The notes: a model not told the origin generated them from the sequence alone. A stretch of 32,000 bases of DNA from Pyrobaculum calidifontis JCM 11548 (GCF_000015805.1 NC_009073.1:1320001-1352000); one strand, 5' to 3'; shown: positions 2,878-30,015, counted from the stretch's first letter. Numbers and translations: made by a program.

Positions 2878-2920
2878 GGAGAAATTAAACGCGTTTAAAA
2901 AATAGCGAGTTAAAAGGGGG

Positions 2921-7884: not shown

Positions 7885-9744
7885 ATGGATTGGGGAGAAG
7901 CGTTCAGCAACGAGGCGTTGGAGGAGCTCCGCGGGAGACTTGAACGCTGGGAGGAGCTGTGTATGCAACTCCGTGGGCTCTACTACCGCTACATTGACCT
8001 GGCCGCCTTCCGCTCGGAGAAGTGCTTCTATCCCGGGCGGAGGTGTAAGAGGCCGTGGGGGCGGGAGTACGATGTGGGCGACCTCACGTTCATGTGGCTA
8101 CATATCGCAAACACGGCGCCGCTGTGCGGCGATCTCATCAAGGCACTGGCAGATGTGGAGGAGAGGTTTAGACAGATGGGCGTGGAGAGCCTTGAGAAAC
8201 ACGGCGGCGTAGAGGAAAAGTCCATGGCTGTGACAGAAATCGTACACTGGCGCATAAAAAAGCCGGTATATGCAACTGTGGCGTTGTGGGAGAAGAGGCT
8301 GTACGTCTTCTACGACGGCATGTCAATTGGCGAAGGGCTAAGGGGAGATGAGCTGGAGAAACTGATAAGGGAGGCCATGCAAGTGGGCATCGCCGCCGAA
8401 GTATACGACGTAGACGACGAGTATAAACGCCTACTGCTTGAGGTGCCACTGCCAAGGCCCGTGTCGGGATTGCTAGGCAGGTGGAATAGGGCGCCAGTGG
8501 CACTGTTTAGGAATTTGGGCTGGTTGCTGAGCGACGACTGGAGACAGCATCTTGGACACACTGCTGGCAATCCCGGCCAGGTCGCGGTGAGGCTGTTTGA
8601 CTGGATAGCCCTGGCCAAGTACACGATGGAGCGGAGGATCGCGCCAAGGGCGCCGCTGGTATTCAAGCTGTCTATCTATCTGATCACGAGGAGTAAGAGG
8701 GGCAAAAACCCTATCGTCGAAGTGCGCCCCGTCGGCACAGCTACGGAGACCATCTCCACAGTATACGACTGGTTCGGGATAACGCTGGGTAAGACTGAGG
8801 AGGTGTTGGCGAGGGGCTACTTAGTGCTTAAGGCGTTGAAGGAAGAGGCCTTCAAGCGAGACGGCAAGATGTACGTCGTCAACGACGTAGGGGCGTGGAT
8901 TGCCTTTAGCAACGCAGTGGCTACTCTGGTGTTGGGAGACGGCTACGCCATGCCGGCGGAGTTTAGAATTGTGGCTAAGGCCTCGCCCAGAGAGACGTTG
9001 GAGGGAGGTACGCACATAAAAGAGTTGGCTGAGGCTCTGGGCGGCGTGGTGGCTGGGAGAGAGGTAAAGCTCCAGAGCTGGCATATGCGCCTGTTGTTGC
9101 TAACTCCGCCTACGCCCGCCTTTGAAAAGACGGCAGAACTGTACGAGGTACTTGTCAACTACCCGGCGGCCGCCGTTGTCGAAATAAACGGCGCTACATA
9201 TTTGCTCACTCACAACGGCGGTGGCGAGTTTGTAATTGGAAAAGGGAGAGCTACAGAGCTGTACGAGGCAGTAAACAGGCTCGGCATACAGACGAGATTA
9301 AAGGGGCAATTGCTAGTGCTGACTTACGCCCAGCTGGAGGAACTGGCGAGGCGCGGCTTTGCCGTCAAATTCCTCAACGACATGGAGAAAGACGCGGTGA
9401 GAGAAGTTAAGGCTGTGACGCCAGCGTCTGACCCAAACGCCGTTAGGCGCGTGTTAGAGGAGGTGGCCAAGATGGCGAGAATAGTAGTGGCTACAGACAG
9501 AGGCCGGCTCTACATAAGGATAATCCCCCACGACAAGTCCAAGGCGGAGGAAATAGCGGCCAAGCTGAGAGCCGTGGGAATAAGAGCCACGATATTACGC
9601 AAGAAGAGAGAGGTAAGAATACACGAACAAAAGTCGATAGAAATAATCCGTAGGATAGCCCCCCACTTTTTCCACCCATTTACATTTCTACAATCACACT
9701 ACTGCAAAATTAAGGCACCTATATATGAGAGTTTTGATATATGA
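7885..9744 (+). CDS. large lineage-specific protein of unknown function (possibly PaREP2-like)
   Basis: Uninterrupted 619-aa ORF. TATA CTTTTAAAA lies 14-22 nt upstream of ATG 7885. No catalytic motif recognised. The PaREP2 suggestion is from memory of Pyrobaculum paralog families and is unverified. Confidence 0.6.
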   Translation: MDWGEAFSNEALEELRGRLERWEELCMQLRGLYYRYIDLAAFRSEKCFYPGRRCKRPWGREYDVGDLTFMWLHIANTAPLCGDLIKALADVEERFRQMGVESLEKHGGVEEKSMAVTEIVHWRIKKPVYATVALWEKRLYVFYDGMSIGEGLRGDELEKLIREAMQVGIAAEVYDVDDEYKRLLLEVPLPRPVSGLLGRWNRAPVALFRNLGWLLSDDWRQHLGHTAGNPGQVAVRLFDWIALAKYTMERRIAPRAPLVFKLSIYLITRSKRGKNPIVEVRPVGTATETISTVYDWFGITLGKTEEVLARGYLVLKALKEEAFKRDGKMYVVNDVGAWIAFSNAVATLVLGDGYAMPAEFRIVAKASPRETLEGGTHIKELAEALGGVVAGREVKLQSWHMRLLLLTPPTPAFEKTAELYEVLVNYPAAAVVEINGATYLLTHNGGGEFVIGKGRATELYEAVNRLGIQTRLKGQLLVLTYAQLEELARRGFAVKFLNDMEKDAVREVKAVTPASDPNAVRRVLEEVAKMARIVVATDRGRLYIRIIPHDKSKAEEIAAKLRAVGIRATILRKKREVRIHEQKSIEIIRRIAPHFFHPFTFLQSHYCKIKAPIYESFDI

Positions 9745-10034: not shown

Positions 10035-10388
10035 TTAATACAGAAGTATGGTCCGCTCCTTGAGTTTGCCGGAGGTGGGGTCTACTTTTAGCCCTAGGAC
10101 TTCCAGCGTTGTTGCGCCTGTTAACACCTTGTCGACGGCGTCGGAGAGGAGGGCTGGCGCTACCTCTCCCCTTCTCTCTAGCTCTATCCATGTCCGCGTC
10201 TTTTTGAGCTCCACGACGCCGGTGGCGGTTGTGAGTGTGGCCTTTCCTGTGGGCCTTAGGTCGAGCTCCTTGGCTAGTCTACGAGGCACGACAGTCAGCG
10301 TCGTACCGGTGTCCACTAGGGCGTCCACGTCGACGGCCTTTCTCCCCTCGGCGTCGCCTATCTTCGCCGTCATCCACACATGGCCCAC
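10035..10388 (-). CDS. retropepsin-like (clan AA) aspartic protease
   Basis: 117 aa. ALVDTGTT catalytic D-T-G motif in the context typical of the single-domain archaeal/bacterial retropepsin-like family. TATA CCTTTTAAAC lies 17-25 nt upstream of the ATG. Confidence 0.75.
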   Translation of the reverse strand: MGHVWMTAKIGDAEGRKAVDVDALVDTGTTLTVVPRRLAKELDLRPTGKATLTTATGVVELKKTRTWIELERRGEVAPALLSDAVDKVLTGATTLEVLGLKVDPTSGKLKERTILLY

Positions 10389-11731: not shown

Positions 11732-12502
11732 GTGGCGCGTGCCAAGTTGCTCATGAAGGCGGGCATGGGGGCAACCTTCGGCGTCTGGATCACTATCCCC
11801 CACCCCGAGGTGGTGGAGATTCTCTCCAATCTCCCCTTTGACTGGTTTATGTTCGACATGGAGCACGCCCCCATCACTGTGGAGAAGCTGGAGACCATGC
11901 TTATGCCGCTTAGGGGGAGCGACATTGTCCCACTGGCAAGGGTGCCGTGGAACGACCCCGTGGAGATTAAACGCGTGCTCGACCTGGGAGTGGCCGGGGT
12001 CCTCGTGCCGTGGGTTAACACTAGGGAAGAGGCAGAGCGCGCGGTTAAGGCGGTGCGCTATCCGCCGTGGGGCATAAGGGGAGTGGGGCCTCGGCGGAGC
12101 GTCATGTACGGCTTCGCAGACGTGGTAAAGTACTACAAGGAGTGGGACGAGAACTACGTCTTGCTGGTCCAAGTGGAGACGGCGGAGGCCGTGGAAAACG
12201 TTGAAGAAATCGCGTCGGTGGAGGGCGTCACCGGCCTCTTCGTGGGGCCCAACGACCTCTCGGCCTCCCTGGGCGCGTTTAGAGATTTTAAAAACCCCAA
12301 GTTCACCGCGGCGCTTGAAAGAGTGTTGGCCGCGGCCAAGAGCCGGGGCAAGCTGGCCGGAGTCATGACGTACAGCCCCGAGGAGGCGGCGAGGATGGTG
12401 GAGATGGGGTTCAACTTCGTGGCTCTTTCACACGACGTGAAGTACTTGGTGGAGGGGGCAAAAGCCTTTCTTAGAGTTAAGGAGCTACTCGGGCGGCGGT
12501 AG
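11732..12502 (+). CDS. HpcH/HpaI-family 2-keto-3-deoxyacid aldolase
   Basis: FGVWITIPHPEVVEILSNLPFDWFMFDMEHAP...ARVPWNDPVEIKRVLDLGVAGVLVPWVNTREEAERAVKAVRYPPWGIRG is the typical HpcH/HpaI aldolase core. I prefer GTG 11732, with TATA AATATTTAT 19-27 nt upstream. The alternative is ATG 11753. The track start 11627 overlaps the TauE start region. Confidence 0.85.
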   Translation: MARAKLLMKAGMGATFGVWITIPHPEVVEILSNLPFDWFMFDMEHAPITVEKLETMLMPLRGSDIVPLARVPWNDPVEIKRVLDLGVAGVLVPWVNTREEAERAVKAVRYPPWGIRGVGPRRSVMYGFADVVKYYKEWDENYVLLVQVETAEAVENVEEIASVEGVTGLFVGPNDLSASLGAFRDFKNPKFTAALERVLAAAKSRGKLAGVMTYSPEEAARMVEMGFNFVALSHDVKYLVEGAKAFLRVKELLGRR

Positions 12503-12832
12503 GTACTCCTTCTCCTTGGCGGCCATCTGCTTTATCTCCTCGAGTCTCGAAAACACCTCGTCCCACACCTCGCGTCCCGTGGACTTGTGCTTGGCCACTG
12601 CCTCAAACACCGCCTTTCTAAAGGCCACGGGGACGTCCTCTATGTAGCCCCTGCTGTCTACTCTCGCGGCGGGGAACTCCGAGAGTATCCTCTTGGCCAC
12701 GTCCTCTGGCACTTCGAAGTCCAGAGTCTTGACTCTGCCGCCGAAGCTGGACTTTATCAACGACTCCAGCGGAGTGCCCTTGATTCTCTCAAGCCGCTTT
12801 TCGTCTAATACCAGGGCGAATTTGTACGTCAT
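12485..12832 (-). CDS. hypothetical protein translationally coupled to sat
   Basis: 115-aa ORF whose ATG overlaps the sat stop (ATGA at 12829-12832). Charged, helical-looking composition typical of real hyperthermophile proteins. No family recognised. Confidence 0.5.
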   Translation of the reverse strand: MTYKFALVLDEKRLERIKGTPLESLIKSSFGGRVKTLDFEVPEDVAKRILSEFPAARVDSRGYIEDVPVAFRKAVFEAVAKHKSTGREVWDEVFSRLEEIKQMAAKEKEYLPPPE

Positions 12833-14190
12833 AGCTCCACCTCCAGTTGCTCTTCTTTAAGTTTTAAGTAGCGGTCTGTCACGAAGGGGTAGCCGTACAC
12901 CTTCCACCACTTCACAATCACGTCGAATACCTCGGGCCTCATTATTATGGGCGGCGGCCTGAGGCCCTCCATTATTATGCCGCGGATAAAGGAGCCGCTG
13001 AACTTCTCAGGCTTGTCTCCCACAAGCGGCTTGTCTAAGTCGCTCCCGTAGTAGGTAATCTCGTCGGCCTTGGGGCTATAGGCGAATTCGCCCAAGTTGA
13101 CTGGGAGGATCTTGAACCCCTTGTCTGTCTCATGCGGAGGCTCGTTTAGGCCGTAGCTGGGGAGGCCCTTGGTCCAGAGTATCTGCGTGGCGTAGGGGTC
13201 GTAGTAGTCGCCCACGGCGGCGTGGTCGCGGCCGAACATGTGGTGAGTGCAGCCGAGGTTCTGCCTAATCACTGCGTGGAGCAGGGACTCCAGTGGGTTG
13301 CCGTACCTCATGTCCCACAGAGTCATGGTGACCACATGCCTGTCGGGGTGGAAGTAGCCGAACTTGTTGAGGGCCTCGTGGGCCTCGAGGATGGCCTCGT
13401 CCAAGTAGTCGCCGGGCCTCTTGGCGCCTATAATGGCGTTTACCAGCACCGCGTCTCCCGGCCTAGTGGCCCCCGCGACGAAGAGCGCGTGCTTCATAAG
13501 GGCCTCGTGGCCCCGGTGGGGCACGTTGCGCGTCTGGTGCGCCACAACGATGGTCCACCCCTTCTGCCTTATGTACTCCCTGGACTTCTGCGGTGGGTAC
13601 CAGAACCTGTCGTAGGGCTGTCTAAACTTCGGCGGATTTACCACGTAGACCCTCCCAGCGACGAAGTTGGGTTTCAACTGTCTGTATATCAGCCAGCCTG
13701 GGTGCTTTTCGTCAAACCTCTTCCTAACAACCTCCTTATTCCTCTCAGGCGTGCCGAATACCCTATCGGCGAACGTCTTCCTGTCCTCTACCCTGTATAT
13801 CTCCTCTATCCTCTCCACAACAGCGAAGGGCCTGCCCTTGAGCCTAAGGCAGAGGCCGTCCCCCTCCTTGACGCCGGCGGCCTTGAGGTCCTCGTCGGAG
13901 AGGTCGAGGACTATGGGGTATGGGAATATCCACCCGTCGAGGAGCCGCCTCTCCTCGAGCACCCTCTCCACCTCGTTTCTTGTCATGAACCGGTCCAGCG
14001 GCGAGAAGAAGCCGTAGGCAATCGACATGATCTCTCGGTACACATTCCTAATGGGAGTCCCGGCGGGGTCCAGCGTCGGCTTTATATCTACGCAGGGGAG
14101 CCCCTCCACCATCTTCGCCGCCTTGTCTCTATCCTCTACCACGTTGTACACGAGCCTGCCCCCGTGGGGCGGCGGCGTTTCGAACTTCAT
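12829..14190 (-). CDS. sat: sulfate adenylyltransferase (ATP sulfurylase)
   Basis: 453 aa. N-terminal PPHGGRL, nucleotidyltransferase HxxH motif in QTRNVPHRGHEALM, and GRDHAAVG, the canonical ATP sulfurylase motifs. Confidence 0.95.
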   Translation of the reverse strand: MKFETPPPHGGRLVYNVVEDRDKAAKMVEGLPCVDIKPTLDPAGTPIRNVYREIMSIAYGFFSPLDRFMTRNEVERVLEERRLLDGWIFPYPIVLDLSDEDLKAAGVKEGDGLCLRLKGRPFAVVERIEEIYRVEDRKTFADRVFGTPERNKEVVRKRFDEKHPGWLIYRQLKPNFVAGRVYVVNPPKFRQPYDRFWYPPQKSREYIRQKGWTIVVAHQTRNVPHRGHEALMKHALFVAGATRPGDAVLVNAIIGAKRPGDYLDEAILEAHEALNKFGYFHPDRHVVTMTLWDMRYGNPLESLLHAVIRQNLGCTHHMFGRDHAAVGDYYDPYATQILWTKGLPSYGLNEPPHETDKGFKILPVNLGEFAYSPKADEITYYGSDLDKPLVGDKPEKFSGSFIRGIIMEGLRPPPIIMRPEVFDVIVKWWKVYGYPFVTDRYLKLKEEQLEVEL

Positions 14191-14209
14191 AGCAAACCGC
14201 CGAGGGAGA

Positions 14210-14229
14210 CCTTTTAATCTTAATTCCTA
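14210..14229 (-). promoter_or_regulatory. sat promoter: TATA (GATTAAAAGG) preceded by a degenerate GGAAT element
   Basis: The minus strand reads TAGGAATTA-A-GATTAAAAGG. The first base of the element lies 39 nt from ATG 14190, the same offset as the GTGGAATAA promoters of the dsr region (6/9 identity). Confidence 0.4.
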
Positions 14230-14296
14230 TCTAGAGTGTAATTGTATACATATATTCCCCCCGCCTGTGTCACACGTGCGCATACCCGAGATACCC

Positions 14297-15355
14297 ATGC
14301 TCATAAAGTCACTCTACTTCGCCGGCCGCCCCTCCCTCCTCATCCTAGGGCCCCCCGGCATTGGAAAATCTGAGTCTGTCCGCGCCGCGGCGGCCGCCGT
14401 GGCAAAGGAGCTGGGTCTCCCACTGGTGGAGTACAGCGACGATGTGTACCTAGACGTGGTGAAAAACCCCGAGGTCTGCCTCCTCGTGGATCTCCGCCTC
14501 ACCGAGGTAGAACCTGCCGACATTGTAGGCGTGCCTAGGCCCGTGGACGGCGGGGCTGTGCAGTACTTCCCCCAGGCGTGGGCCAAGGCCTTGTCCAAGG
14601 CCAAGTGCGGCTTCCTATTCCTCGACGAGTTGACCAACGTCCAACGCGATGACGTGGCCGCCGTGGCGTATAAACTACTGCTGGAGAAAAAGGCCGGGTT
14701 CACGAAGTTCTCCGAGGGGGCCATGGTGGTGGCCGCGGGAAACGACCCCGAGACCTCCCCCATAGCCAGGCCCCTCCCAGCCCCCCTAATAAACAGGGTG
14801 GTGGTGCTCAAGGCGGAGCCCCCCACCGTCGAGGAGTGGTATCAGTACATGGCCGAGCGCCACGGTGACTTCGACAAGAGGACCTACCTCTACCTAACCC
14901 TCTACCCTGAGGACCTCCTGGAGAAGGCGGCCAGTCTTGAGACTGTGAATAACTTCGCCACGCCCCGGTCTTGGACCACTCTGGCCCTCCTCCTGGCGAG
15001 GGGGGTGGAGTCGCCTGACGTGATATACGGCCTCCTCGGCCCAGCGGTGGGGGCAAAATTCAAGGCCTTTATCTCCACCAAGGTGGACGTGGAAGACGTG
15101 TTGTCCAACCCCCAGAAGTTCGACGGCCTCAAGCCGGACGAGAGGCTCATCCTCCTCCACGAGGTGGCTCGCGCGGCGGAGCACCGCGACGTGTCAAAAT
15201 TCGTGGAATTCCTCCAGGGGAGGATGGAGTGGCTCATCCTCTTCCTCCGCCTCGTCAAACGCGACGTAGCCGCCAAGCTCCTCTCGGCAATGCCACACGA
15301 GGTGGTGACGCGTCTCTACAAAGTGGCCACCATTGTGGAAAAACTGAAAAAATGA
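14297..15355 (+). CDS. MoxR/AAA_5-type AAA+ ATPase
   Basis: Walker A LILGPPGIGKSE, Walker B FLFLDELTN, sensor region VVAAGN. The single AAA module and its size fit the MoxR/NorQ/CbbQ-like class. ATG 14297 is preferred; the track start 14027 lies inside sat on the opposite strand. Confidence 0.8.
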   Translation: MLIKSLYFAGRPSLLILGPPGIGKSESVRAAAAAVAKELGLPLVEYSDDVYLDVVKNPEVCLLVDLRLTEVEPADIVGVPRPVDGGAVQYFPQAWAKALSKAKCGFLFLDELTNVQRDDVAAVAYKLLLEKKAGFTKFSEGAMVVAAGNDPETSPIARPLPAPLINRVVVLKAEPPTVEEWYQYMAERHGDFDKRTYLYLTLYPEDLLEKAASLETVNNFATPRSWTTLALLLARGVESPDVIYGLLGPAVGAKFKAFISTKVDVEDVLSNPQKFDGLKPDERLILLHEVARAAEHRDVSKFVEFLQGRMEWLILFLRLVKRDVAAKLLSAMPHEVVTRLYKVATIVEKLKK

Positions 15356-16560
15356 TAGAGGATCTCTACGCCGCAACTGCCCTATCCCCCTTCTGGGCCG
15401 CCACTCTGTGGCGCCTCCGCATCGTGAGGAGGGTGGGGGCAAAGTCCGTGGTGGAGCTAGACGGCTACTCAATAGCCGTGGGAGACCGCTACCTCCAACT
15501 GCCCCCCGCCCACCGCATCGCCGAGCTCCTCCACGTGGCGACCCACGTCCTCTTCGACCACGTGGGGCGGATGGCGGGGAGAGACCCAGAGCTGTGGTGG
15601 CTCGCCGCAGACGCCGTGGCCTACTCTATAGTGGAGTCGACGGGCGTGGAGTTGCCCAAATACGCCAAAGCCCTCATCGACGCCGTGAAGTATCTAACAG
15701 GGCTAGACCCCCGCTCCGCCTCTGTGGAAGATATATACGACCGCTTGGTCAATACCTCCGCCAAGTACCTCATTGACAGGTCGCAGTTGCCCACGTACCG
15801 GGGCCACTTCTACCGCGAAAACTACGACGTAGAGGAGGACGTCAGCAGGGGGGACCCCGCCCTGTATGCCACCCGGCCGGAGGACAGGCGGAGGATGCTC
15901 ATAGAGCTCGTAAGCTCCGCCTCTGTGGCCGCCAAGAGGGCTGGCTACATGTCCTTGTCCGTGGAAAAGGAATACGCCAAGCTTGCCGAGTCGGCGGCAA
16001 TCCCCTGGCGGGGGTCGCTTCGAAGCCTCTTCGCGAGCACAGCCGCCGCCGTCCTTGAGACGTGGGCGCGGCCCAATAGGCGCGTGGAGGAGTACCCAGG
16101 CGCCAGGAGGAGGACGTACACCAAGGTGTGGTGCCTCGTGGACACCTCAGGCTCGATATCGGACGAGGAGTACGCCCTATTTCTCGCAGAGGTGGCCGAA
16201 ATCGCCAGGCGCACCCAGTCCAAGGTAATGTTTGTGCAGTGGGAGGTGGGGATAAGGGCCGTGCACGAGGTGAGGCGGCCGAGCGACTTGGAGAAAATAA
16301 GCCGGATAGGCTTCGGCGGCACCGTCCTAGCCCCCGCCATTAGGAGGGTGGCCGAGCTCGCCAAGCCCTGGGAGCCGGTGGTGGTCTTCTCAGACTTCGT
16401 CCTATGGGACTTCTCAGCCGCCGTGGAGGCCCTCTCTAAGGCCGCGCAGAGGGGCAAGGTCATCCTCGCCACAACGGCCGTCAGGCCCAGAGTGCCGGGC
16501 GCCCGGCTCGTCCAAATCGCCGAGCCCAAGGTGGAGGAGCTACTCGGCATGTCCGGATGA
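15352..16560 (+). CDS. VWA-domain protein with an N-terminal degenerate metallopeptidase-like domain (DUF2201-like)
   Basis: The ATG overlaps the AAA stop (ATGA at 15352-15355). N-terminal LLHVATHVLFDHVGR...LWWLAADAVAYSIV resembles the putative-peptidase domain, but HExxH reads HVATH. C-terminal VWCLVDTSGSISDEE carries the MIDAS motif DxSxS of VWA domains. Confidence 0.75.
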   Translation: MIEDLYAATALSPFWAATLWRLRIVRRVGAKSVVELDGYSIAVGDRYLQLPPAHRIAELLHVATHVLFDHVGRMAGRDPELWWLAADAVAYSIVESTGVELPKYAKALIDAVKYLTGLDPRSASVEDIYDRLVNTSAKYLIDRSQLPTYRGHFYRENYDVEEDVSRGDPALYATRPEDRRRMLIELVSSASVAAKRAGYMSLSVEKEYAKLAESAAIPWRGSLRSLFASTAAAVLETWARPNRRVEEYPGARRRTYTKVWCLVDTSGSISDEEYALFLAEVAEIARRTQSKVMFVQWEVGIRAVHEVRRPSDLEKISRIGFGGTVLAPAIRRVAELAKPWEPVVVFSDFVLWDFSAAVEALSKAAQRGKVILATTAVRPRVPGARLVQIAEPKVEELLGMSG

Positions 16561-17165
16561 CGGCCCTGCTCTGCATGGAGGCCGCCCAGGAGCTCTCCAA
16601 GAGAGGCGTAGACACTACGCCGCTGGAAGCCGCCTGCAACCCCGCGAGGCGCCTCGCGGAGGAGGAGGAAGAGGCGTGCGTCCTAGCCCTCGAGGCCGGG
16701 GACACGTGCCCCCAACCGCCCCCGTGGTTGGCGCCGCTACAGATCTACAACTTCTTGTCTAAGCAGAGGAGGCTGGGCAGGCATGGCAGAAGGCTGTTAA
16801 AGGCTGTGGAGGAAGAGGCGAGACGCCTACTTATGCGCATATACGAGGCCAAGGCGGCCCTACTCCATCTCCCACTCCACGTGCTAGCCGACGCGCCGCC
16901 CCACTGCCACAGGAGGTTCTACTTCGACGGAGAGGCCATCTACCTCACACAAGGCCAATGCCCCGCCCCCACACCCGCCCCCCGGCCAGAAAAGGCAGAA
17001 AAGCTGATAGACCTAAAGGCCCCCCACGCCACGGCGGCAAAGCGCCTTGAGACAGTAAAGGCCGCCTACCCGGAGCTGGCCCAGTACCTAGCCGAGGTGG
17101 AGGCCGCCATCGAGAGACTAAAAAGGGAGTACATAGCCTACGTCTTGTCGAAAGGCGGGGAGTAG
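16557..17165 (+). CDS. hypothetical Cys-containing protein, third gene of the AAA/VWA operon
   Basis: The ATG overlaps the VWA stop (ATGA at 16557-16560). 202 aa, six Cys (including PPHCH and GQCP), acidic stretch EEEEEA, C-terminal coiled-coil-like helix. No family recognised. Confidence 0.5.
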   Translation: MTALLCMEAAQELSKRGVDTTPLEAACNPARRLAEEEEEACVLALEAGDTCPQPPPWLAPLQIYNFLSKQRRLGRHGRRLLKAVEEEARRLLMRIYEAKAALLHLPLHVLADAPPHCHRRFYFDGEAIYLTQGQCPAPTPAPRPEKAEKLIDLKAPHATAAKRLETVKAAYPELAQYLAEVEAAIERLKREYIAYVLSKGGE

Positions 17166-17194
17166 GGAAAAACCGGTGGGGGAAGGAGGAAAAA

Positions 17195-19078
17195 TTAGTC
17201 GATTATGTGTATTACTGGGGAGGTTCTGAAGCTCCACTGGCCGGTCTTGGGGTCGCGTCTGACGTGTGTGAATACGTGCCAGTTGTCCTCGTCGATGTAG
17301 GGGTAATCGGCGTTGAAGTAGTAGCCGCGGCTCTCCTTGCGGTTCATCATGGAGAAGACCACCGCCTGGCCCACTATGAGGCGGTGATAGACCTCCCACA
17401 CGCGGAGGAGCTCGTGGAGGCTGGCCGCGGCGGCGAAGCGGAAGTCCTCCTCCAACATCTTCAACAGCTCCCAGGCGCGGCCCAGCATGTACATATTGGT
17501 GGTGTAGAAGGTACCCCAGCCCGCCGCGTATTCGTCCATGATCTTCTGAAGCCTTGTCAGTAGCTGGTACCAGTTTAGGTAGTTGGGGTGTATCTCAAAC
17601 CAGTTGGTCAAGTTGGGCGGCATCTCCGGCGTGGTGGTCAACGGCTTGAGTTTGTGGTACCACTCCAGCGGCCTGTACACAATCTCCTTGTATCTCTCAA
17701 TGGTGTCGTTGCTCACCACCGGCTTGTAGTCCTTGGCCTGGGTCAAGACGTATCTAGCCGCAGACTTGCCCGCGATTCTACCCTCTGTGAAGGAGCCGCT
17801 GGAGAACTTGTGGCCAGACGCCCCCACGGTGTCGCCGGCGCCGAAGAGGCCCTCCACAGTCAACATGCGGTTGGGGCCCCACTTGTACTCAGGCGGCGCA
17901 ATGTCCGGCGGCCCGGAGGCCCACATGCCTGCCGACGAGCCGTGGCTACCCTGTTGGTAGGGCTCGGTGGGCAGTAGCTCAGAGGGCGTCCTCTGCGGGT
18001 GTATGTTCTGGCTGGCCCAGTATATCACCTGGGTGGGTGTCATGTCTAAGTAGTCCTCAAAGAGAACTTTGAGGCTCTCCTCGTCTGGGAGCCTCTCTTG
18101 CGTCTGCATTATGTCGGGCCCACGGCCCTCCTTCAAGTTCTGAATAGTGACCCAAGTCCTTATGGGAGTCGGCGTGGGCCTGGCCCACGCGTAGTCGTAG
18201 AAGATCTTGGCCAACTCCGCCTTTGCCTCGTCTGGGAGAGGCTCCCACTGCTTGCCCTTGACGTCAGTGGAGCGCATCTTGAGCAGGAGGTAGGGGAAGC
18301 CCACGGGGCCGTAGGCGTCTTTGAACCGCACTACCACAAGCCTAAATTCAAAGTTCACAGTCTCGGCCCCGGCCAGGAGAGGTATGGCGTATGCGCTTCC
18401 GCTTGCCCAAGTGGGGTACCACGCCCTCCCCAGGCCCTCGCCGACGCTACGCGGCCTGTACAAAAGCGACGTGCCGCCCGCGGCCACGATCACCGCCTTG
18501 GCCTTAAAGACGTAGAAGGTGCCGTCTCTCACGTGGAAGCCCACCACGCCCGCAATCCTGTTGGGCCTCTGCTCATCTAGGAGCGGGTGTGTGACAAAGA
18601 CCCTCTCGTAGACCTCGTCGGCGGACTTTCTACAGGGCTCGGCTATAATCGCCTTGTAGGACTCCCCGTGGATTGGGTGCTGCCATCTGCCGGTTCTGAG
18701 GTACTTCCCAGTCTTGGGGTCGCGCCAGATGGGCAGCCCCCACATGTCGAAGAGCTTTATGGTGGAGGTCATGTGCCTCGCTATGTCGTACACGAGGTCT
18801 TCTCTGACCACGCCGAGTAGGTCGTTGCGCACGTAGCGGACGAACTCCTCGGGCTTGGGGTCCTCTGGGTCCTCGCTGAAGACGCCTAGGTTAGTGGCGC
18901 TGAGGCCCATCCCCACTGCGCCGCTCTTCTCAGTGTTGGCCTTCTCCACGAGGGTCACCTTGCACTTGCTCCTGCACCAGTACTTGGCCTCAAAAACTGC
19001 GCCGCATCCCGCCATTCCGCCGCCTACCACCAAAATGTCAGTCTCGACGACCTTCGTGGGGAAGTGGAGCGCCGACAT
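17195..19078 (-). CDS. aprA: adenylylsulfate (APS) reductase, alpha (FAD) subunit
   Basis: 627 aa. N-terminal FAD fold ILVVGGGMAGCGA. Fumarate-reductase-like flavoprotein with a length typical of AprA. Starts 1 nt after the aprB stop. Confidence 0.95.
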   Translation of the reverse strand: MSALHFPTKVVETDILVVGGGMAGCGAVFEAKYWCRSKCKVTLVEKANTEKSGAVGMGLSATNLGVFSEDPEDPKPEEFVRYVRNDLLGVVREDLVYDIARHMTSTIKLFDMWGLPIWRDPKTGKYLRTGRWQHPIHGESYKAIIAEPCRKSADEVYERVFVTHPLLDEQRPNRIAGVVGFHVRDGTFYVFKAKAVIVAAGGTSLLYRPRSVGEGLGRAWYPTWASGSAYAIPLLAGAETVNFEFRLVVVRFKDAYGPVGFPYLLLKMRSTDVKGKQWEPLPDEAKAELAKIFYDYAWARPTPTPIRTWVTIQNLKEGRGPDIMQTQERLPDEESLKVLFEDYLDMTPTQVIYWASQNIHPQRTPSELLPTEPYQQGSHGSSAGMWASGPPDIAPPEYKWGPNRMLTVEGLFGAGDTVGASGHKFSSGSFTEGRIAGKSAARYVLTQAKDYKPVVSNDTIERYKEIVYRPLEWYHKLKPLTTTPEMPPNLTNWFEIHPNYLNWYQLLTRLQKIMDEYAAGWGTFYTTNMYMLGRAWELLKMLEEDFRFAAAASLHELLRVWEVYHRLIVGQAVVFSMMNRKESRGYYFNADYPYIDEDNWHVFTHVRRDPKTGQWSFRTSPVIHIID

Positions 19079-19079
19079 A

Positions 19080-19562
19080 CTACTTCGCCTGCTTAGCCTT
19101 TATTATACTACCCACGATTCTCACGGGCTGCGCCGGGCGTGGAAGCTCCTTAAAGCCCAAGAACTCGGGGTTGTCCTCCAGCGCGAGGAGCTCCGAGTCT
19201 AGGTCGGGCCTCTCGGGGAAGTCTAGCGCGCCCTTCGCCGAGCCCCAAGGGGTGGTGCGTATGGGGGAGGCGAACTCGTACACCGTTCCGTCTCTGTACA
19301 TTACGCGCCAGTAGATTATGTTCTTCTTGGTATCTCTCACAACGCCTATCCGGGCGCCCAGCGGGATAAAGTCGCTGTATCCTCTCACCTCCACCGCGTG
19401 TTCTGGGCAGTACTTGACGCAGTTTAAACACTCGGCACACGACACTGGGTCAGCGTTGTAGGCCTTCCTTATCTTGGGGTTGTAGTGCATGTTGTCTGCC
19501 GGGCATATGTCTACACACTTGCCGCACCCCTTGCACAGAGAGGCATATACAAATGTAGGCAT
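19080..19562 (-). CDS. aprB: adenylylsulfate (APS) reductase, beta (2x[4Fe-4S]) subunit
   Basis: MPTFVYASLCKGCGKCVDICP ... CAECLNCVKYCP, two ferredoxin-type clusters plus the long C-terminal tail typical of AprB. I prefer ATG 19562 over the track start 19580, which would lie on the TATA box. Confidence 0.9.
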   Translation of the reverse strand: MPTFVYASLCKGCGKCVDICPADNMHYNPKIRKAYNADPVSCAECLNCVKYCPEHAVEVRGYSDFIPLGARIGVVRDTKKNIIYWRVMYRDGTVYEFASPIRTTPWGSAKGALDFPERPDLDSELLALEDNPEFLGFKELPRPAQPVRIVGSIIKAKQAK

Positions 19563-19580
19563 GTCCCCACCCCTCTGCAC

Positions 19581-19605: not shown

Positions 19606-20559
19606 ATGGAAATAAGACTTAAGAACAAGCGCGCCGAGTGGACCATGCCCACAGAGATGGCGACTATAAAGGAGATTCAAACGGCGTGGGGGACCTACCG
19701 CTTCGTTGAGTCGCCTGTTGATTGGTTCGCCATAGACGTGTTGGCCGCGTTAACAGTGCTCTGGATCTTATTCACTTTTTGGTATAAGGGGGTGCGCCAG
19801 TTCAACGTCGTAAGATACCCCTACATTGAGACGATGATACCCTACGCCGAGTGGGATAGAAAGTTGTTAAGGGAGAAGCCCCCCATAGGCGTCGGAAGCG
19901 CCATCGCATACTTCTTCAAGACGTTGTTCGCCGACGTGTTGGCTATGGGAATTCTGAAGTGCGAATACGGGAAGTCGGAGAAGGAGGTGGTTAATACGAG
20001 GGCCGCGAAGCGGGTCGCGAAGCTGTTCATGGTATGGGGCTTTGTACTCGCCGGCATTTCTACGACGCTGGCCTACTTCACCTTCCCCCACAACATGATC
20101 GTCCTAGACCTGCACCACCCAGCCAGGATATTTGGCGTGGCGGGCGGAGTGCTCATGGTGGTGGGCGCCTTGATATGGCTCTCCGTTAGGTACAAGGAGG
20201 TGAACTACAGAGGCATTTGGGACTGGCTCGGCGCAGACTACTTGCCCTTCATGGTTCTACTGCTGGGGCTCTCCGGGTTCGTCCTACAAGCCGCCATATA
20301 CGTCTGGGCCCACAACCCCAGCGACGCCTTTGCCAACGCCTTCCTCTACTTTGCTGAACACTTCCACGCCATCCCCGTGGCGCTGTTCTTCTGGGCGTTC
20401 TTTTGGACAAAGGCCGACCACATAATCTACAGAATCCTCTGGCGCATATACGAGTACGCCGACAAGAAGTATGCGGCTTCTCACAACATCAGCAGACTCC
20501 CGCCGCCGACCCTCAAGGTGATGAATAAGACGGGCAAAGAGATACAGCCAGGCTACTAA
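19606..20559 (+). CDS. six-TM membrane protein with a NarI/DsrM/HdrE-like C-terminal heme-ligand signature; candidate membrane partner of AprBA
   Basis: 317 aa from ATG 19606 (the track start 19489 lies inside aprB). About 6 hydrophobic helices. The last helix carries H-x14-K-x2-H (HAIPVALFFWAFFWTKADH). The DsrM-like ORF of this window has identical spacing (HAALAMLFIAYVPFGKMVH), and this equals the H-x17-H spacing of NarI helix V. Confidence 0.6.
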   Translation: MEIRLKNKRAEWTMPTEMATIKEIQTAWGTYRFVESPVDWFAIDVLAALTVLWILFTFWYKGVRQFNVVRYPYIETMIPYAEWDRKLLREKPPIGVGSAIAYFFKTLFADVLAMGILKCEYGKSEKEVVNTRAAKRVAKLFMVWGFVLAGISTTLAYFTFPHNMIVLDLHHPARIFGVAGGVLMVVGALIWLSVRYKEVNYRGIWDWLGADYLPFMVLLLGLSGFVLQAAIYVWAHNPSDAFANAFLYFAEHFHAIPVALFFWAFFWTKADHIIYRILWRIYEYADKKYAASHNISRLPPPTLKVMNKTGKEIQPGY

Positions 20560-22546: not shown

Positions 22547-23137
22547 ATGGCGCGGATTATATTAGTAGCAGTGCCCGGGGTGGGGAAGAGCACGATTTTG
22601 AAGTTTCTAACTGAGCGCAGGAGAGACGTCCAAGTGGTAAACTACGGCGACGTGATGCTCGAAATCGCCAAGGCCCGCTTCGGCATCGCCAATAGGGACG
22701 AGATGAGGAAGAAAATCCCCCTGGAACAGTACAGGGAGGTCCAGAGGGAGGCCGCGGAGAGAATCGCCCAGATGCAGGGCCACGTGGTGGTGGACACCCA
22801 CGCGTCGATAAAGATAGCCGGGGGGTACTACCCAGGCCTACCCCACCGCATTATCACGCTCATGAAGCCGCACGCCATTGTGTTAATAGAGGCGGACCCG
22901 CAGGTGGTGCTAAAGCGCAGAGCCAGCGACGCCACTAGGCCCACGAGGGACGTGGAGACCCCCGAAGACGTGGAAAGGCACCAAGAGGCCAACCGGCACT
23001 ACGCCTACGCGGCCTGCGAGGCGGCGGAGTGCATCGTCTACATAATCGACTTACGCAAAGTGCCAGAGACGCGGCCCTTTGAACACGCAGAGTACGCCGC
23101 GGGCAAGCTATCCGAGCTCATAGACGCCCTCGGCTGA
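22547..23137 (+). CDS. adkA: archaeal-type adenylate kinase
   Basis: 196 aa. N-terminal P-loop VAVPGVGKST. The size and layout (P-loop NMP kinase of about 195 aa, IDLRKV-type C-terminus) match the archaeal AdkA class. Confidence 0.75.
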   Translation: MARIILVAVPGVGKSTILKFLTERRRDVQVVNYGDVMLEIAKARFGIANRDEMRKKIPLEQYREVQREAAERIAQMQGHVVVDTHASIKIAGGYYPGLPHRIITLMKPHAIVLIEADPQVVLKRRASDATRPTRDVETPEDVERHQEANRHYAYAACEAAECIVYIIDLRKVPETRPFEHAEYAAGKLSELIDALG

Positions 23138-23417
23138 CGGTCTTCCACAACTCTCTCAAAAGAGCCGCCACCTGCCCCAGCGGCTTCTCAGTCTTGTAAA
23201 ACACGGCGAGGTACTGCACAGCCCCGTCGTCGACAAGTATACAGGGGCCGCACAGCTCAGCAGCCACGTCGCCAATGGGCCTCCCCCCGTACGTGGCAGG
23301 CAACTTGACGACTCCCCCCTCGGCTATTACCAACGCCTTTAGATTGCAGAGGCAGACGAGTTCAGCAAAAACTTTTTCAAAAAACTCCCTGGCGTTTTCT
23401 ACCCGGATCTCCTCCAC
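23118..23417 (-). CDS. small hypothetical protein coupled to the dsrM-like gene (possibly Roadblock/LC7-like)
   Basis: 99 aa. GTG 23417 overlaps the dsrM-like TAG by 1 nt. The KALVIAEGGVV ... ILVDDGAVQYLAVF pattern is reminiscent of Roadblock/LC7-type small alpha/beta proteins; this is a weak, unverified impression. Confidence 0.4.
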   Translation of the reverse strand: MEEIRVENAREFFEKVFAELVCLCNLKALVIAEGGVVKLPATYGGRPIGDVAAELCGPCILVDDGAVQYLAVFYKTEKPLGQVAALLRELWKTVSRGRL

Positions 23418-24181
23418 TATCCCCTCAGCTTCGTCAGTATATATCCGTAGAGCCTAGTGGGGGCGCTCCAGAGGGTGGGCATGGCCAAGAAGGAGAATGG
23501 GTGCACCATTTTTCCAAAGGGCACGTAGGCTATGAAGAGCATGGCCAACGCCGCGTGAACCTTAGTGACCACGTCCGCCTCGGCCATCTTCTCAACGCCA
23601 GCCACGGGATTCCCCAAGAGGACGTTCTGCAACCACGGAGACACAGTCTCCATGTAGTTGGGGTGCAAGACGAGGGTCTGCACATTGCCAAGGCCCACAA
23701 TTGCGAGGAGGAGGACTAGGGCAAACCAGTCGTCTAGAAAGCTCAGCTTCCGCACGTCTGGCCTAACGAGCCTCCGCACGAGGAGGAGGACCAGCCCTAT
23801 GAACGCCGCAATGCCCGCCGCCCCGCCCACATACAGGGCTATGGCCTTGTGCACCTCCTTCGGCATCCCGAAGTTCTCCGGGGGGACGATCATGGAGAGG
23901 TGGCCGAGGAGCGCGATCCAGATGCCCCAGTGGAATAGGAAAGACCCCACCTGCAAGAGGCGGTCGGACATGCCGAGGTTGTAGAGCACGAAGATCCTCT
24001 TGAGCACCTCGCCGAGCCTGTCGCCGAAGCCCCACTTGTAGCCCAGCACCTGTACTGAGTAGAGGCCCGTGAGGTCCGGCGCCCTGAGCCACCCGGCGAA
24101 TTTGTACAAAACCCCAGCTATGAACAGCGCCAGAGATATGTAAGGCGCTACGCCAAATACAAATAAATCAAGTGGAGACAT
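23417..24181 (-). CDS. dsrM: DsrM/HmeC-like membrane di-heme cytochrome b (NarI family)
   Basis: 254 aa, about 5 TMs. Helix II H-x9-H (HWGIWIALLGH) and helix V H-x17-H (HAALAMLFIAYVPFGKMVH) reproduce the NarI heme-ligand spacings. Confidence 0.8.
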   Translation of the reverse strand: MSPLDLFVFGVAPYISLALFIAGVLYKFAGWLRAPDLTGLYSVQVLGYKWGFGDRLGEVLKRIFVLYNLGMSDRLLQVGSFLFHWGIWIALLGHLSMIVPPENFGMPKEVHKAIALYVGGAAGIAAFIGLVLLLVRRLVRPDVRKLSFLDDWFALVLLLAIVGLGNVQTLVLHPNYMETVSPWLQNVLLGNPVAGVEKMAEADVVTKVHAALAMLFIAYVPFGKMVHPFSFLAMPTLWSAPTRLYGYILTKLRG

Positions 24182-24200
24182 AGGAAGATTGGGAGTGGGG

Positions 24201-24220
24201 CTTATAATCTGTTATTCCAC
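24201..24220 (-). promoter_or_regulatory. dsrM-like promoter: GTGGAATAA element + TATA
   Basis: The minus strand reads GTGGAATAA-CAG-ATTATAAG. The first base of the element lies 39 nt from ATG 24181. Confidence 0.6.
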
Positions 24221-24228
24221 ATTCACGG

Positions 24229-24666
24229 TTAATACCTCTTCTCCATGCACTTGCCCAGCTGCTTTAAGAGAGAGACGAGGTAGCCCAAGCCTCTCTGCAC
24301 GTCTGGGTCCCTAAGCGCCGCCAGTAGGCCCATTAGGCCAATTGGCTTTTCCACCTCCGCAACGGCCACGGCGGTGGTTAAGCAGTCCAGCTTTGAAGTA
24401 TCTTGCGACATGTTGACCGCGGCGGTTAGGGCCACCTCCTGCAACTTGGCGACCTTCTCTATGAAGCCCGGCGTGAGCAGGCCCTCGGTTATAAAGCGTA
24501 ACGTAGTGGCCAACTGGAGCAAGTCGTCCAACACGCCGCTCCTCTTGAACTCCCACAGCGTCCTCACCAAGTCGCGGAGGACGTCTATCCGCTCGACGAT
24601 CTCTGCGAGAGCCTCCTGCGTCTTAGGAGACTCCAACGCCTTTAAGAGCCTCTCCTCGGTACTCAT
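24229..24666 (-). CDS. DUF1641-family protein
   Basis: 145 aa from ATG 24666, which overlaps the sqr-like stop (ATGA at 24663-24666). The C-terminal PIGLMGLLAALRDPDVQRGLGYLVSLLKQLG matches the DUF1641 hallmark. That family is commonly encoded next to FAD-dependent SQR/NDH-2-like oxidoreductases. Confidence 0.65.
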   Translation of the reverse strand: MSTEERLLKALESPKTQEALAEIVERIDVLRDLVRTLWEFKRSGVLDDLLQLATTLRFITEGLLTPGFIEKVAKLQEVALTAAVNMSQDTSKLDCLTTAVAVAEVEKPIGLMGLLAALRDPDVQRGLGYLVSLLKQLGKCMEKRY

Positions 24667-25799
24667 AGCCCACACCTAACCGCGCTCCATATGGAGAAAT
24701 TAGTCAAATCTTTTAGCCTCATCATGAACTTATTGCTTGGCACGGGGTAGAGGGCGGGGCCGTCGTAGTTCCAGCTCACCTGCGTAGCCTCCTCTGTCCC
24801 CGTCAAAATGAAGCATATGACCCTGCCGTTGTATACAGAGTCTGCGTGGCCGAACTCCATATCCTCATATATCCTGTCAGCCACAACCTCGGACTGGAAG
24901 TGCGCCACGCTGCCAGCCTTAGGCACGGCCAAATTGGTGGTATCGCCTATCGCGTACTCCACTCCGTTGCCCCCGGCGATCTGGAGAGTGTACTTATCCA
25001 CGGGGACCCAGCCCCCCTGGTCCACCAGTCCCGAGTTAAAGGCCACCTCTGCCGCGGTGTGCTTAGGCACCACGATAATTAAGTCGCCCTTCAACGTCTC
25101 GGGGCCCACCACCTCCCCCTCCCTCACCTCCTTTACCTCGAACTTGGTCCTATACTCAATCCCCCTATTCCTAAACTCCTCCTCCAAGAACTTGTTCACA
25201 TTGGGCTGCGCATGCAGGTGCGGCGCCACCGTGGTAAACACTATTTTGACGTCCTTCTTCCGCCCAGTCTTCATCAACACGTCGTCGAAGTAGAAGAGGA
25301 ACTCGTAGGGGGCAACGGGGCACTTAAAAGGCGTCGAGGCAACGGAGAATACCAAGGTCCCCTTAGCAAATTTAGAGAGGGCTTCCCTCAGCGCCTTGGC
25401 CCCCTCGTAAGTCCAGAAAGTGTGCCACACCTTTTTAAACCCGGGAAAGTGGTCCGTCTTAACCACCGCGCCCGTGGCCAAGACGAGGTAGTCGTACTGA
25501 ATCTCAGACCCATCCCCCAGAACCACCTTGCGGTTTTTCACGTCTATTTTGGTGGCCGGCTTTTTCACCAAGTTCACAAGTGGGTGTAGCACCTTCCGCA
25601 CGGGCCTAAACATCACTTCGCTGGGCAACTCCTTAAACGGGACGTATAGGAACCCGGGCTGGTAGACCACGTTCTCCTCCGGCTCTACAACTACGACCTC
25701 CAGCTCCCCCTTCTTCACCTTTGCAAACGCCTTAGTTGCCAACTTATTCGCAGTAAACGCGCCGCCGACTCCCCCTCCCACTATTACCACCCTCCGCAT
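24663..25799 (-). CDS. sulfide:quinone oxidoreductase-like FAD-dependent disulfide oxidoreductase
   Basis: MRRVVIVGGGVGGAFTANKLA dinucleotide fold. Two candidate redox Cys in SQR-like contexts (TPFKCPVAPYEF and GRVICFILTG), plus an IGDTT FAD motif. ATG 25799 is preferred; the track start 25811 would lie about 6 nt from the TATA. Confidence 0.8.
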   Translation of the reverse strand: MRRVVIVGGGVGGAFTANKLATKAFAKVKKGELEVVVVEPEENVVYQPGFLYVPFKELPSEVMFRPVRKVLHPLVNLVKKPATKIDVKNRKVVLGDGSEIQYDYLVLATGAVVKTDHFPGFKKVWHTFWTYEGAKALREALSKFAKGTLVFSVASTPFKCPVAPYEFLFYFDDVLMKTGRKKDVKIVFTTVAPHLHAQPNVNKFLEEEFRNRGIEYRTKFEVKEVREGEVVGPETLKGDLIIVVPKHTAAEVAFNSGLVDQGGWVPVDKYTLQIAGGNGVEYAIGDTTNLAVPKAGSVAHFQSEVVADRIYEDMEFGHADSVYNGRVICFILTGTEEATQVSWNYDGPALYPVPSNKFMMRLKDLTNFSIWSAVRCGL

Positions 25800-25816
25800 G
25801 CCAGCACGCAATGAGA

Positions 25817-25837
25817 AATTTATACAACTTATTCCCT
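25817..25837 (-). promoter_or_regulatory. sqr-like promoter: AGGGAATAA element + TATA
   Basis: The minus strand reads AGGGAATAA-GTTG-TATAAATT. The first base of the element lies 38 nt from ATG 25799. Confidence 0.5.
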
Positions 25838-25883
25838 AGTCGCTGTATAATAAGGCAAAAGTTTATTCGAAAGCAATTTTGAA

Positions 25884-25906
25884 CAAAATTAAAATTAAAA
25901 TATATT
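25884..25906 (-). terminator. T-tract terminator region after the dsrK-like gene
   Basis: The minus strand immediately downstream of the TAA (25917-25919) reads ATATTTTAATTTTAATTTTGTTC. Archaeal termination typically occurs at oligo-T runs. Confidence 0.4.
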
Positions 25907-25916
25907 TCAGGGAGCT

Positions 25917-27401: not shown

Positions 27402-27417
27402 ATCCCCAACGCCGTTT

Positions 27418-27439
27418 GTATAAATAAAGCTTATTCCAC
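27418..27439 (-). promoter_or_regulatory. dsrK-like promoter: GTGGAATAA element + TATA
   Basis: The minus strand reads GTGGAATAA-G-CTTTATTTATAC. The first base of the element lies 38 nt from ATG 27401. Confidence 0.6.
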
Positions 27440-27444
27440 AGACA

Positions 27445-27708
27445 ATGCTAACTCCCGTGCCCCATGCAGAGGAGGCCGCCTACGCCGTATCTACCTTCTC
27501 CGCCTTCAACTACACAAAGCCCCCCGAATATACCGCGTCACCGCCCTATGGCGTCGGCAATTGTCCCGTCGAGGCGCAATGTTGGGGCACAATACACGTG
27601 TACAACTTATGGCGCGGAGTTCTGCAAGCTCTGCCGCATCAGCCCAGTGGCCCCCTTAAATGGGCCAAGCCCCTAGGGCGGGGACCAGCACTTTCTCACA
27701 ATAACTAG
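27445..27708 (+). CDS. candidate small ORF (87 aa) divergent from the dsrK-like gene
   Basis: This is the only long ORF in an otherwise unassigned 270-bp gap. ATG 27445 lies 18 nt from the central TATAAATA of a 43-bp spacer, mirroring the aprB arrangement. The composition is Pro-rich and poor in charged residues (atypical), and no family was recognised. Confidence 0.25.
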   Translation: MLTPVPHAEEAAYAVSTFSAFNYTKPPEYTASPPYGVGNCPVEAQCWGTIHVYNLWRGVLQALPHQPSGPLKWAKPLGRGPALSHNN

Positions 27709-29645: not shown

Positions 29646-29660
29646 GGGGAAAAAGGGGGT

Positions 29661-29996: not shown

Positions 29997-30015
29997 AGAC
30001 CCACTTGGGCCTGTG

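Follow-up and report, generated by a model that had tools for sequence, protein, structure and literature searches.

How a three-gene operon came to lie between the genes for two consecutive steps of sulfur metabolism, and whether it serves the enzymes that flank it, is the question raised by a 32,000-nucleotide stretch of the Pyrobaculum calidifontis JCM 11548 genome (GCF_000015805.1, NC_009073.1:1320001-1352000), hereafter called the window. The operon separates sat from aprBA, and its three open reading frames (ORFs) encode a MoxR-class AAA+ ATPase (ORF1), a protein that joins a zincin-like domain to a von Willebrand factor A (VWA) domain (ORF2), and a Cys-containing protein of no recognizable family (ORF3). 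The original prediction for this locus proposed, by analogy with MoxR/VWA pairs such as NorQ/NorD, that the trio could serve Sat/AprBA as a dedicated chaperone or as a means of cofactor insertion, and added as a hedge that the operon might be a selfish or defence-type insertion. The evidence presented below favors the direction of the hedge. We consider it probable, at roughly 75%, that the trio is a horizontally acquired cassette of viral or plasmid origin that landed antisense between aprA and sat in one Pyrobaculum lineage and has since been kept there by selection.

The presence of the trio beside aprBA is specific to one lineage. A scan with AprA, restricted to one genome per species, yielded nine related Thermoproteales loci (AprA 78-93% identical), which include Pyrobaculum metagenome-assembled genomes, P. 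oguniense TE7, Vulcanisaeta, Thermoproteus and Thermoproteaceae. The genes aprB and aprA and a QmoC-like gene are present at all nine, and sat with its DUF6955 companion is nearby at eight; ORF1, ORF2 and ORF3 occur within 10 kb of aprA at none of the nine. The co-occurrence and synteny with sat/aprBA in Thermoproteales that the original prediction had proposed to look for were therefore not observed. Scans in the reverse direction started from an ORF2 alignment and gave 80 metagenomic plus 80 viral loci carrying ORF2 relatives; sat, aprA or aprB accompanies such a relative at a single locus among these 160 (L001), which belongs to the window's own species. Among independent copies whose downstream flanks could be read, the closest (L003; VWA protein 54% identical, ORF3 homologue present) resides at an unrelated locus, with PIN/AF2212 toxin-antitoxin genes and an ABC transporter downstream of the module. 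Occurrence at unrelated loci is what the original prediction had named as evidence against itself, and it is what the ORF2 scans and the L003 copy revealed. As judged from these gene neighborhoods, and from the phage families to which the pair belongs (see below), the view that the trio is a conserved accessory of Sat/AprBA is not supported, and a chaperone or cofactor-insertion system dedicated to these enzymes was not borne out.

The related loci also suggest what the site looked like before the trio arrived. At two of them (L006 and L011), aprA is directly followed by a co-directional sat-DUF6955 pair, with a gap of only ~220 base pairs (bp) in L011, and for this reason the trio appears to interrupt an ancestral aprBA-sat array. 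The window looks like an L011-type arrangement into which the trio has been inserted antisense between aprA and sat. At other loci a TauE gene lies between aprA and sat (L007, L008 and L010), or sat is found on the other side, beside the QmoC-like gene (L004, L009 and L012). The 3′ flank of aprA differs in the two closest relatives, L004 and P. oguniense, where other genes are located.

The distribution of the protein families points to the source of the cassette. ORF1 matches phrog_1297 (E = 1.3e-48) and ORF2 matches phrog_1314 (E = 1.2e-40), and tblastn searches identified relatives in 756 (ORF1) and 292 (ORF2) phage records, the best of which are N4-like podoviruses (Schitoviridae). Identity to the phage pair is 25-29% over 83-96% of the length. 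In N4-like phages the two proteins are annotated as ‘N4 gp24-like’ and ‘N4 gp25-like’ (e.g. LIT1), and their genes are situated just upstream of those for the helicase and DNA polymerase. Both gp24 (‘unknown’) and gp25 (‘vWFA domain’) are middle genes and belong to the set of 14 that makes up the N4-like phage core (PMC4193335). Furthermore, group 2.2 jumbo phages encode a MoxR AAA+ ATPase together with a vWA cochaperone fused to an N-terminal metallopeptidase (Iyer et al., PMC7824862), and a role for this pair as a chaperone of virion assembly and processing has been proposed by analogy with the pair p618/p892 that Acidianus two-tailed virus (ATV) encodes (PMC7824862). Relatives are likewise carried by 42 plasmid records, among them bacterial plasmids and megaplasmids. 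When the full-length fold of ORF1 was searched with Foldseek, phage proteins (Bacillus phage G Gp566, E = 2e-19, template modelling (TM) score 0.66; also RaK2 ‘Gp24-like’) scored better than every cellular MoxR structure (1e-10). The order of the two genes is constant: at all 65 loci where both are detectable, the ATPase gene comes first and the VWA gene lies downstream, on the same strand.

The nearest archaeal relatives (29-50% identity) are encoded on contigs of tightly packed and mostly ORFan genes, which also carry genes for ThyX, Cas4-like PD-(D/E)XK nucleases, a TFIIB-like factor, a zf-C2H2 protein, a sliding clamp and AAA/MCM-like ATPases. Because they are rich in ORFans and hold genes of these types, the contigs look like viruses or plasmids. 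Two ORFan-rich archaeal contigs of ~27-31 kb, binned as ‘Crenarchaeota archaeon’ and possibly complete virus or plasmid genomes, encode two DUF2201-type proteins (461 and 641 amino acids) near one gp24-like ATPase (L181, 10172-15228; L182, 6811-11867).

The assignment of ORF1 to the MoxR class rests on its structure and its homologues, and not on its own Pfam score. The only Pfam model to pass is the generic AAA family (PF00004, 1.6e-6), while AAA_5 (PF07728) falls below its cut-off (19.3 versus 22 bits) and AAA_3 (PF07726) is not reported. Thus, of the AAA_5/MoxR label in the original prediction, the MoxR class holds, as judged by the AlphaFold2 (AF2) model, Foldseek and the homologues, whereas the AAA_5 match itself does not. 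PF07728 or PF07726 is, however, found in homologues at 25-45% identity, and ORF1 is thus a divergent MoxR member outside the curated subfamilies. Among 50 homologues, the Walker A motif GPPGIGKS (G18, G21, G23 and K24), the Walker B residues D110-E111, and N149, R167 and R224 (sensor 1, Arg finger and sensor 2, respectively) are all invariant. The AF2 model has a predicted local distance difference test (pLDDT) score of 95.9 and includes two beta-hairpin inserts of the kind that characterizes the helix-2-insert clade, both assigned from the secondary-structure string rather than from coordinates: one in helix 2, placed between beta2 and beta3 (strands 79-83/87-91), and a short pre-sensor-1 hairpin (132-137) ahead of beta4. 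In a Foldseek comparison with solved structures, ranks 1-19 (E = 1e-10 to 2e-7) are occupied by 18 chains of NorQ (1e-10) and by CbbQ2 (6l1q, rank 13; 1e-8), followed by dynein, midasin and Lon. A profile built from the 50 homologues matches midasin AAA domains at 1e-14 and NorQ at 3e-4, and a single-sequence search of the PDB gave only P-loop-level matches to RuvBL and RFC.

ORF2 combines a match to PF13203 (DUF2201_N, ‘putative metallopeptidase’) over residues 12-245 (2.6e-19, 70.3 bits, cut-off 23.2) with a match to PF09967 (DUF2201, VWA-like) over residues 262-350 (2.5e-14, 53.9 bits, cut-off 26.4). A literature search on DUF2201 found no functional study. The metal ion-dependent adhesion site (MIDAS) of the VWA domain was predicted to be intact, and indeed all 14 aligned diverse relatives share D264, S266, S268, T324 and D348 without exception. 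The N-terminal domain was predicted to be a dead peptidase, as its HExxH motif reads HVATH, and this expectation is strengthened by the alignment: HExxHxxxxH is retained in 12 of the 14 aligned members, and HVxxH is confined to the window protein and its nearest relative, L002, each of which retains the full set of three His. The N-terminal domain of ORF2 is therefore probably catalytically inactive, judging from its motif. A profile of the ORF2 family gave weak matches for the N-terminal domain to M48/HtpX/BepA and to the minigluzincin MJ1213, and the best PDB match for the VWA domain was that of TROVE/Ro60 at 3e-5, followed by integrin I-domains. A single-sequence PDB search with ORF2 returned no match, VWA_CoxE was below its cut-off (19 versus 26.4 bits), and NCBIfam produced no NorD or CbbO match.

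Several relatives of ORF2 depart from its compact form or from its usual partnership. Hot-spring virus-like proteins (L014, 1172-2815; L020, 6354-7997; L024, 4530-5972) carry a low-complexity linker of ~100-150 amino acids, rich in Gly, Gln, Ser and Lys, between the zincin and VWA domains, and the window protein has none. A distant DUF2201_N-VWA homologue (L013, 10001-13600; 28% identical, intact HEILH) is paired not with a MoxR protein but with a 781-amino-acid STAND-type NTPase (NB-ARC/AAA_16/TPR) and lies near a CHAT protease and DUF1822, in a context that resembles a conflict system. In addition, gp25-like zincin-VWA proteins are widely labelled ‘HNH endonuclease’ (PHROG 1314; RefSeq phage records, e.g. 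NC_013692 LIT1). This label appears to be a propagated misannotation, as an HNH domain could not be detected in ORF2 and its Pfam matches imply none.

ORF3 had been described as a Cys-containing protein without a family, and sequence-library, HMMER and Foldseek searches uphold that description. No family was found in Pfam, NCBIfam, PADLOC or PHROGs, and an exhaustive phmmer search over 1.84e9 representatives recovered only the protein's own cluster, while a word-indexed search gave two close matches. The AF2 model has a pLDDT of 61 overall and of 72-93 for residues 1-90, with a confident N-terminal helical domain spanning residues 1-98, and a Foldseek search of the PDB with this model identified no fold match (best E = 1.4). 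Nevertheless, ORF3 is not devoid of conservation, a lack of which the original prediction would have counted against itself. The ORF downstream of the L003 VWA gene is 27% identical to ORF3 (E = 2e-8), with C6, C27, C41 and C51 aligned to Cys residues, and the last 23 residues at the end of L002 resemble the ORF3 N-terminus. The ORFs that follow the VWA gene in nine more distant loci (L014, L020, L024, L181, L016, L017, L179, L025 and L183) are unrelated to ORF3 and to each other, save for those of L014 and L020, which are 70% identical. By sequence comparison, ORF3 is conserved with the module in a narrow clade and is an orphan beyond it.

All three ORFs are under purifying selection. Relative to L001, a 138-kb ENA metagenome contig from a second strain of the window's species, the ratio of nonsynonymous to synonymous substitution rates (dN/dS) is 0.024 for ORF1, 0.030 for ORF2 and 0.125 for ORF3 (dS 0.07-0.14). 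The same comparison gives 0.047 for sat, 0.072 for aprA and 0 for aprB. Against a third and more diverged copy (L019), the values are 0.097 for ORF2 and 0.123 for ORF3. With such low ratios, similar to those of sat and aprA, ORF1 through ORF3 are not chance ORFs.

Comparison with systems described previously places the trio closest to phage N4 gp24/gp25, with which it shares a full-length match of both proteins, the domain architecture and the gene order with the ATPase upstream. The window copy departs from the phage pair in being encoded on the chromosome of an archaeon rather than in a virus genome, and in having a translationally coupled, clade-specific third gene. In addition, ORF1 and ORF2 overlap directly, whereas one to several ORFs often separate the pair in phages and plasmids, and ORF2 lacks the catalytic Glu of HExxH that most gp25-like proteins keep. 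The MoxR plus zincin-vWA pair itself has already been described; what is new is a chromosomal three-gene version with a dead peptidase and an orphan ORF3.

The resemblance to cellular MoxR/VWA systems is more general. ORF1 shares its AAA+ core fold with NorQ and CbbQ (TM 0.61-0.66, normalized to the target), and, as in NorQD, CbbQO and CoxDE, the partner is a VWA protein with a MIDAS motif, such that a ring, a VWA adaptor and client remodelling are likely common features. For NorQ-NorD, the MoxR hexamer takes a VWA ‘finger’ into its pore, and a linker or client is remodelled through ATP hydrolysis (PMC13036017). Unlike these systems, the trio has no conserved synteny to a target enzyme (0/9 loci). 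An additional helical domain at the C-terminus, roughly 100 residues long, extends ORF1 past the ~250-270 amino acids of NorQ and CbbQ, and ORF2, with a zincin-like domain at its N-terminus, is a member of DUF2201, which distinguishes it from NorD, CbbO and CoxE. A crenarchaeal-host precedent for virus-encoded MoxR/VWA chaperones exists in ATV, whose p618 (MoxR) and p892 (VWA) bind each other directly, with the VWA protein stimulating the ATPase, and have been assigned a chaperone role in tail development (PMC4124505). The relationship of p618/p892 to the window pair is only distant: hhalign gave a probability of 20% for the ATPase (E = 1e-3) and of 92% for the VWA domain alone (E = 6e-7). Moreover, p892 lacks a zincin domain and the p618 and p892 genes are not adjacent; the two pairs belong to the same superfamily but not to the same family.

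These precedents suggest how the trio might operate. By analogy with NorQ-NorD and ATV p618-p892, ORF1 would form a hexameric ring typical of MoxR-class AAA+ proteins, and ORF2 would dock on this ring via its VWA domain. The metal site of the ORF2 MIDAS would then grip an acidic residue of a client protein, which ATP hydrolysis by ORF1 would remodel or release. In most members of the family the zincin domain of the VWA protein would cleave the client as well. Because the catalytic Glu has been lost in this clade, ORF2 is probably a pure adaptor. ORF3 is probably a clade-specific client or specificity subunit, and it is the best candidate for such a role because it is translationally coupled to the pair and co-inherited with it only in this clade.

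Some observations weigh against a cassette of viral or plasmid origin, and most of them concern the manner of its arrival. Direct and inverted repeats in positions 14100-17300 are short and at chance level, with none flanking the trio, and no integrase gene is present between or beside the sat and aprA flanks, where tRNA genes were not scanned for. The guanine-plus-cytosine content of the trio is only mildly raised (0.62-0.655 versus 0.58-0.60 in the flanks). The survey of relatives covered 10 kb around aprA and the protein databases, so that a distant paralogue elsewhere in these genomes is possible. Furthermore, at least two diverged strains (the window and L001) have the cassette at precisely the same site, where it is under strong purifying selection and forms a compact operon divergent from sat. 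Such stable, site-specific retention under selection would fit with the host having secondarily recruited the trio for a function of its own. Each mechanistic step outlined above is drawn by analogy, and we know of no member of the gp24/gp25 family with an experimentally established function.

Several competing explanations were weighed. A domesticated antiviral or conflict system, in which the virus-derived MoxR/VWA pair would cooperate with ORF3 as a lineage-specific effector or sensor, is unlikely in our estimation, although it deserves to be kept in mind. Three-gene conflict systems centered on MoxR-vWA are well described and include VMAP, iSTAND, FtsH and beta-propeller types (PMC7159879), and the trio resembles them in joining a MoxR/vWA core to a variable third component. 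The third gene turns over fast between clades, the distribution among close relatives is patchy, the L003 trio resides in a variable region rich in toxin-antitoxin genes, and the distant homologue in L013 adjoins a STAND NTPase and a CHAT protease. However, ORF3 has no VMAP, iSTAND, FtsH or beta-propeller features, no recognizable effector domain and no fold match, and ORF2 lacks fused effector domains. No PADLOC model was matched significantly, as ORF1 gave only P-loop-level matches (IetA at 5.8e-4 over residues 11-44; mad8) and ORF2 and ORF3 gave none. Moreover, the pair is core to lytic N4-like phages, where it lies beside replication genes, and this points to a pro-viral function. A related and somewhat more doubtful proposal is that the virus-derived pair and the Cys-rich ORF3 were domesticated for a host function linked to their position, which might be the remodelling of a complex of the atypical Pyrobaculum APS (adenosine 5′-phosphosulfate) reductase with Sat, or an antiviral activity in which the dead-peptidase adaptor captures a viral client. 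If true, the widespread N4 gp24/gp25 family would thereby gain its first assigned function.

That the trio is a maturation or remodelling system dedicated to Sat/AprBA or to the QmoC-like partner, whether for insertion or repair of cofactors or for complex assembly, we regard as very improbable. This idea draws on NorQ and CbbQ being the nearest solved folds to ORF1, on the trio being the sole content between sat and aprA and having a divergent promoter region in common with sat, and on the maintenance of the site in two strains under purifying selection. The atypical AprB of Pyrobaculum, with Ala in place of a conserved Trp (PMC2211403), could also in principle need a special helper. However, loci with the same AprB type are among the nine that lack the trio, which indicates that Sat and AprBA mature without it, and homologous modules turn up elsewhere, both at unrelated loci and on phage, plasmid and virus-like sequences that carry no sat or apr genes. 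ORF2 is of the gp25-like DUF2201 type rather than the NorD/CbbO/CoxE type, and the position of sat relative to aprBA is fluid within the genus. Even less credible is the view that the trio is a decaying and now functionless remnant of an integrated virus or plasmid, despite the presence of only three genes with no further mobile-element genes around them and a peptidase active site that is already dead. The three ORFs are intact and joined by translationally coupled overlaps, dN/dS stays at 0.02-0.13 while dS ranges from 0.07 to 0.55, and neither the ATPase motifs nor the MIDAS has been disrupted. The E-to-V change in the zincin motif is common to the window protein and L002 at 49% identity, and this change is therefore old and tolerated under selection. 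A cassette acquired from a virus or plasmid and retained by selection is the reading that we prefer.

Features of the P. calidifontis window discussed in the text, with positions counted from the first nucleotide of the window.
Feature	Position	Strand	Description
ORF1	14297..15355	+	352 amino acids; MoxR-class AAA+ ATPase of the phage N4 gp24-like family; N-terminal AAA+ core and long C-terminal helical domain
ORF2	15352..16560	+	402 amino acids; N-terminal zincin-like DUF2201_N domain fused to C-terminal VWA domain (DUF2201); phage N4 gp25-like family
Degenerate zincin motif (ORF2)	15532..15546	+	H61-V-A-T-H65, then H70; catalytic Glu replaced by Val, three His kept
MIDAS motif (ORF2)	16141..16155	+	D264-T-S-G-S268, completed by T324 and D348
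ORF3	16557..17165	+	202 amino acids; lineage-restricted Cys-containing protein; third cassette subunit in the Thermoproteales-type clade
sat	12829-14190	-	NF003166 at 1.7e-140
sat/ORF1 divergent spacer	14191..14296		106 bp; A/T-rich, with TATA-like stretches cttttaatcttaatt and gtatacatatatt; read from the sequence
ORF3-stop/aprA-stop convergent spacer	17166..17194		29 bp; read from the sequence
aprA	17195-19078	-	TIGR02061 at 3e-216; AprA of 627 amino acids
aprB	19080-19580	-	TIGR02060 at 3.5e-42; next after aprA
DUF6955 gene	12485-12832	-	5.5e-28; overlaps the sat stop codon by 4 nucleotides
Membrane protein gene (QmoC-like)	19639-20559	+	Divergent from aprB; weak QmoC C-terminal match (NF038018, 3.9e-6), far below cut-off
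ORF without family match	7885-9744	+	619 amino acids; PaREP1-family gene nearby
Retropepsin-like aspartic protease gene	10035-10388	-	Small; Asp_protease_2/gag-asp_proteas in precomputed L001 annotation
Sulfur-metabolism genes	797-3778 and 22547-31970		Parts of a supercluster that takes in the whole window

Direct reading of the sequence confirmed the layout given in the original prediction, in which three ORFs are chained by ATGA stop/start overlaps (15352-15355 for ORF1/ORF2 and 16557-16560 for ORF2/ORF3), are divergent from sat and convergent with aprA, and are the sole content of the interval between these genes. The length of the divergent spacer is subject to the choice of the ORF1 start codon. 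Database versions of the ORF1 gene encode 362 and 359 amino acids, which place the start 30 and 21 nucleotides 5′ of the ATG at 14297 (at ~14267, where GTG is read, and ~14276), and because of this ambiguity the spacer may be ~76-85 bp. It presumably holds the promoters of both sat and ORF1.

The neighbors of the trio are of interest in their own right. The entire window is one sulfur-metabolism supercluster. Its other genes encode an ABC-2 transporter, a rhodanese, TauE, HpcH/HpaI, adenylate-kinase-like, NarI/DsrM-like and CCG/DsrK-like proteins, an SQR/FCSD-like flavoprotein, DUF1641, a tetrapyrrole methylase, a CobB/CobQ-type (DsrN-like) amidase, DsrE and a NIR_SIR sulfite-reductase-type protein. 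The small aspartic protease gene lies just upstream of the sulfur genes. The DUF6955 gene follows sat in all eight related loci that have sat near aprBA (L004, L006-L008, L010-L012 and L001), and this conserved companion of Sat is a better candidate for a pathway accessory than the trio. The QmoC-like gene stands beside aprB in all nine Thermoproteales loci, and its product is likely the membrane electron-transfer partner of AprBA (AprM/QmoC-like). In AprB itself, the segment C42-A43-E44-C45 (numbered from MPTFVY) carries Ala at the position of the electron-transfer Trp of other APS reductases. The same Ala was reported previously for P. calidifontis and P. aerophilum, and the authors suspected a non-functional enzyme (PMC2211403). 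Despite this substitution, aprA and aprB are under strong purifying selection (dN/dS 0.07 and 0, respectively).

The locus offers a caution for the interpretation of gene neighborhoods. The position between two pathway enzymes and the MoxR/VWA signature together suggested a maturation system, and comparative genomics leads instead to a lineage-specific insertion of a mobile cassette. DUF6955 and the QmoC-like protein are truly conserved neighbors of Sat/AprBA in Thermoproteales, and these are the better candidates for pathway-specific accessories. As for the pair, the MoxR and zincin-vWA proteins constitute a core module of an entire phage family and are also spread widely among jumbo phages, among plasmids and on virus-like contigs from archaea. 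A compact chromosomal trio that is maintained by selection in a cultivable hyperthermophile, with an inactivated peptidase and a candidate client or partner in ORF3, could be a tractable entry point into the biochemistry of this module.

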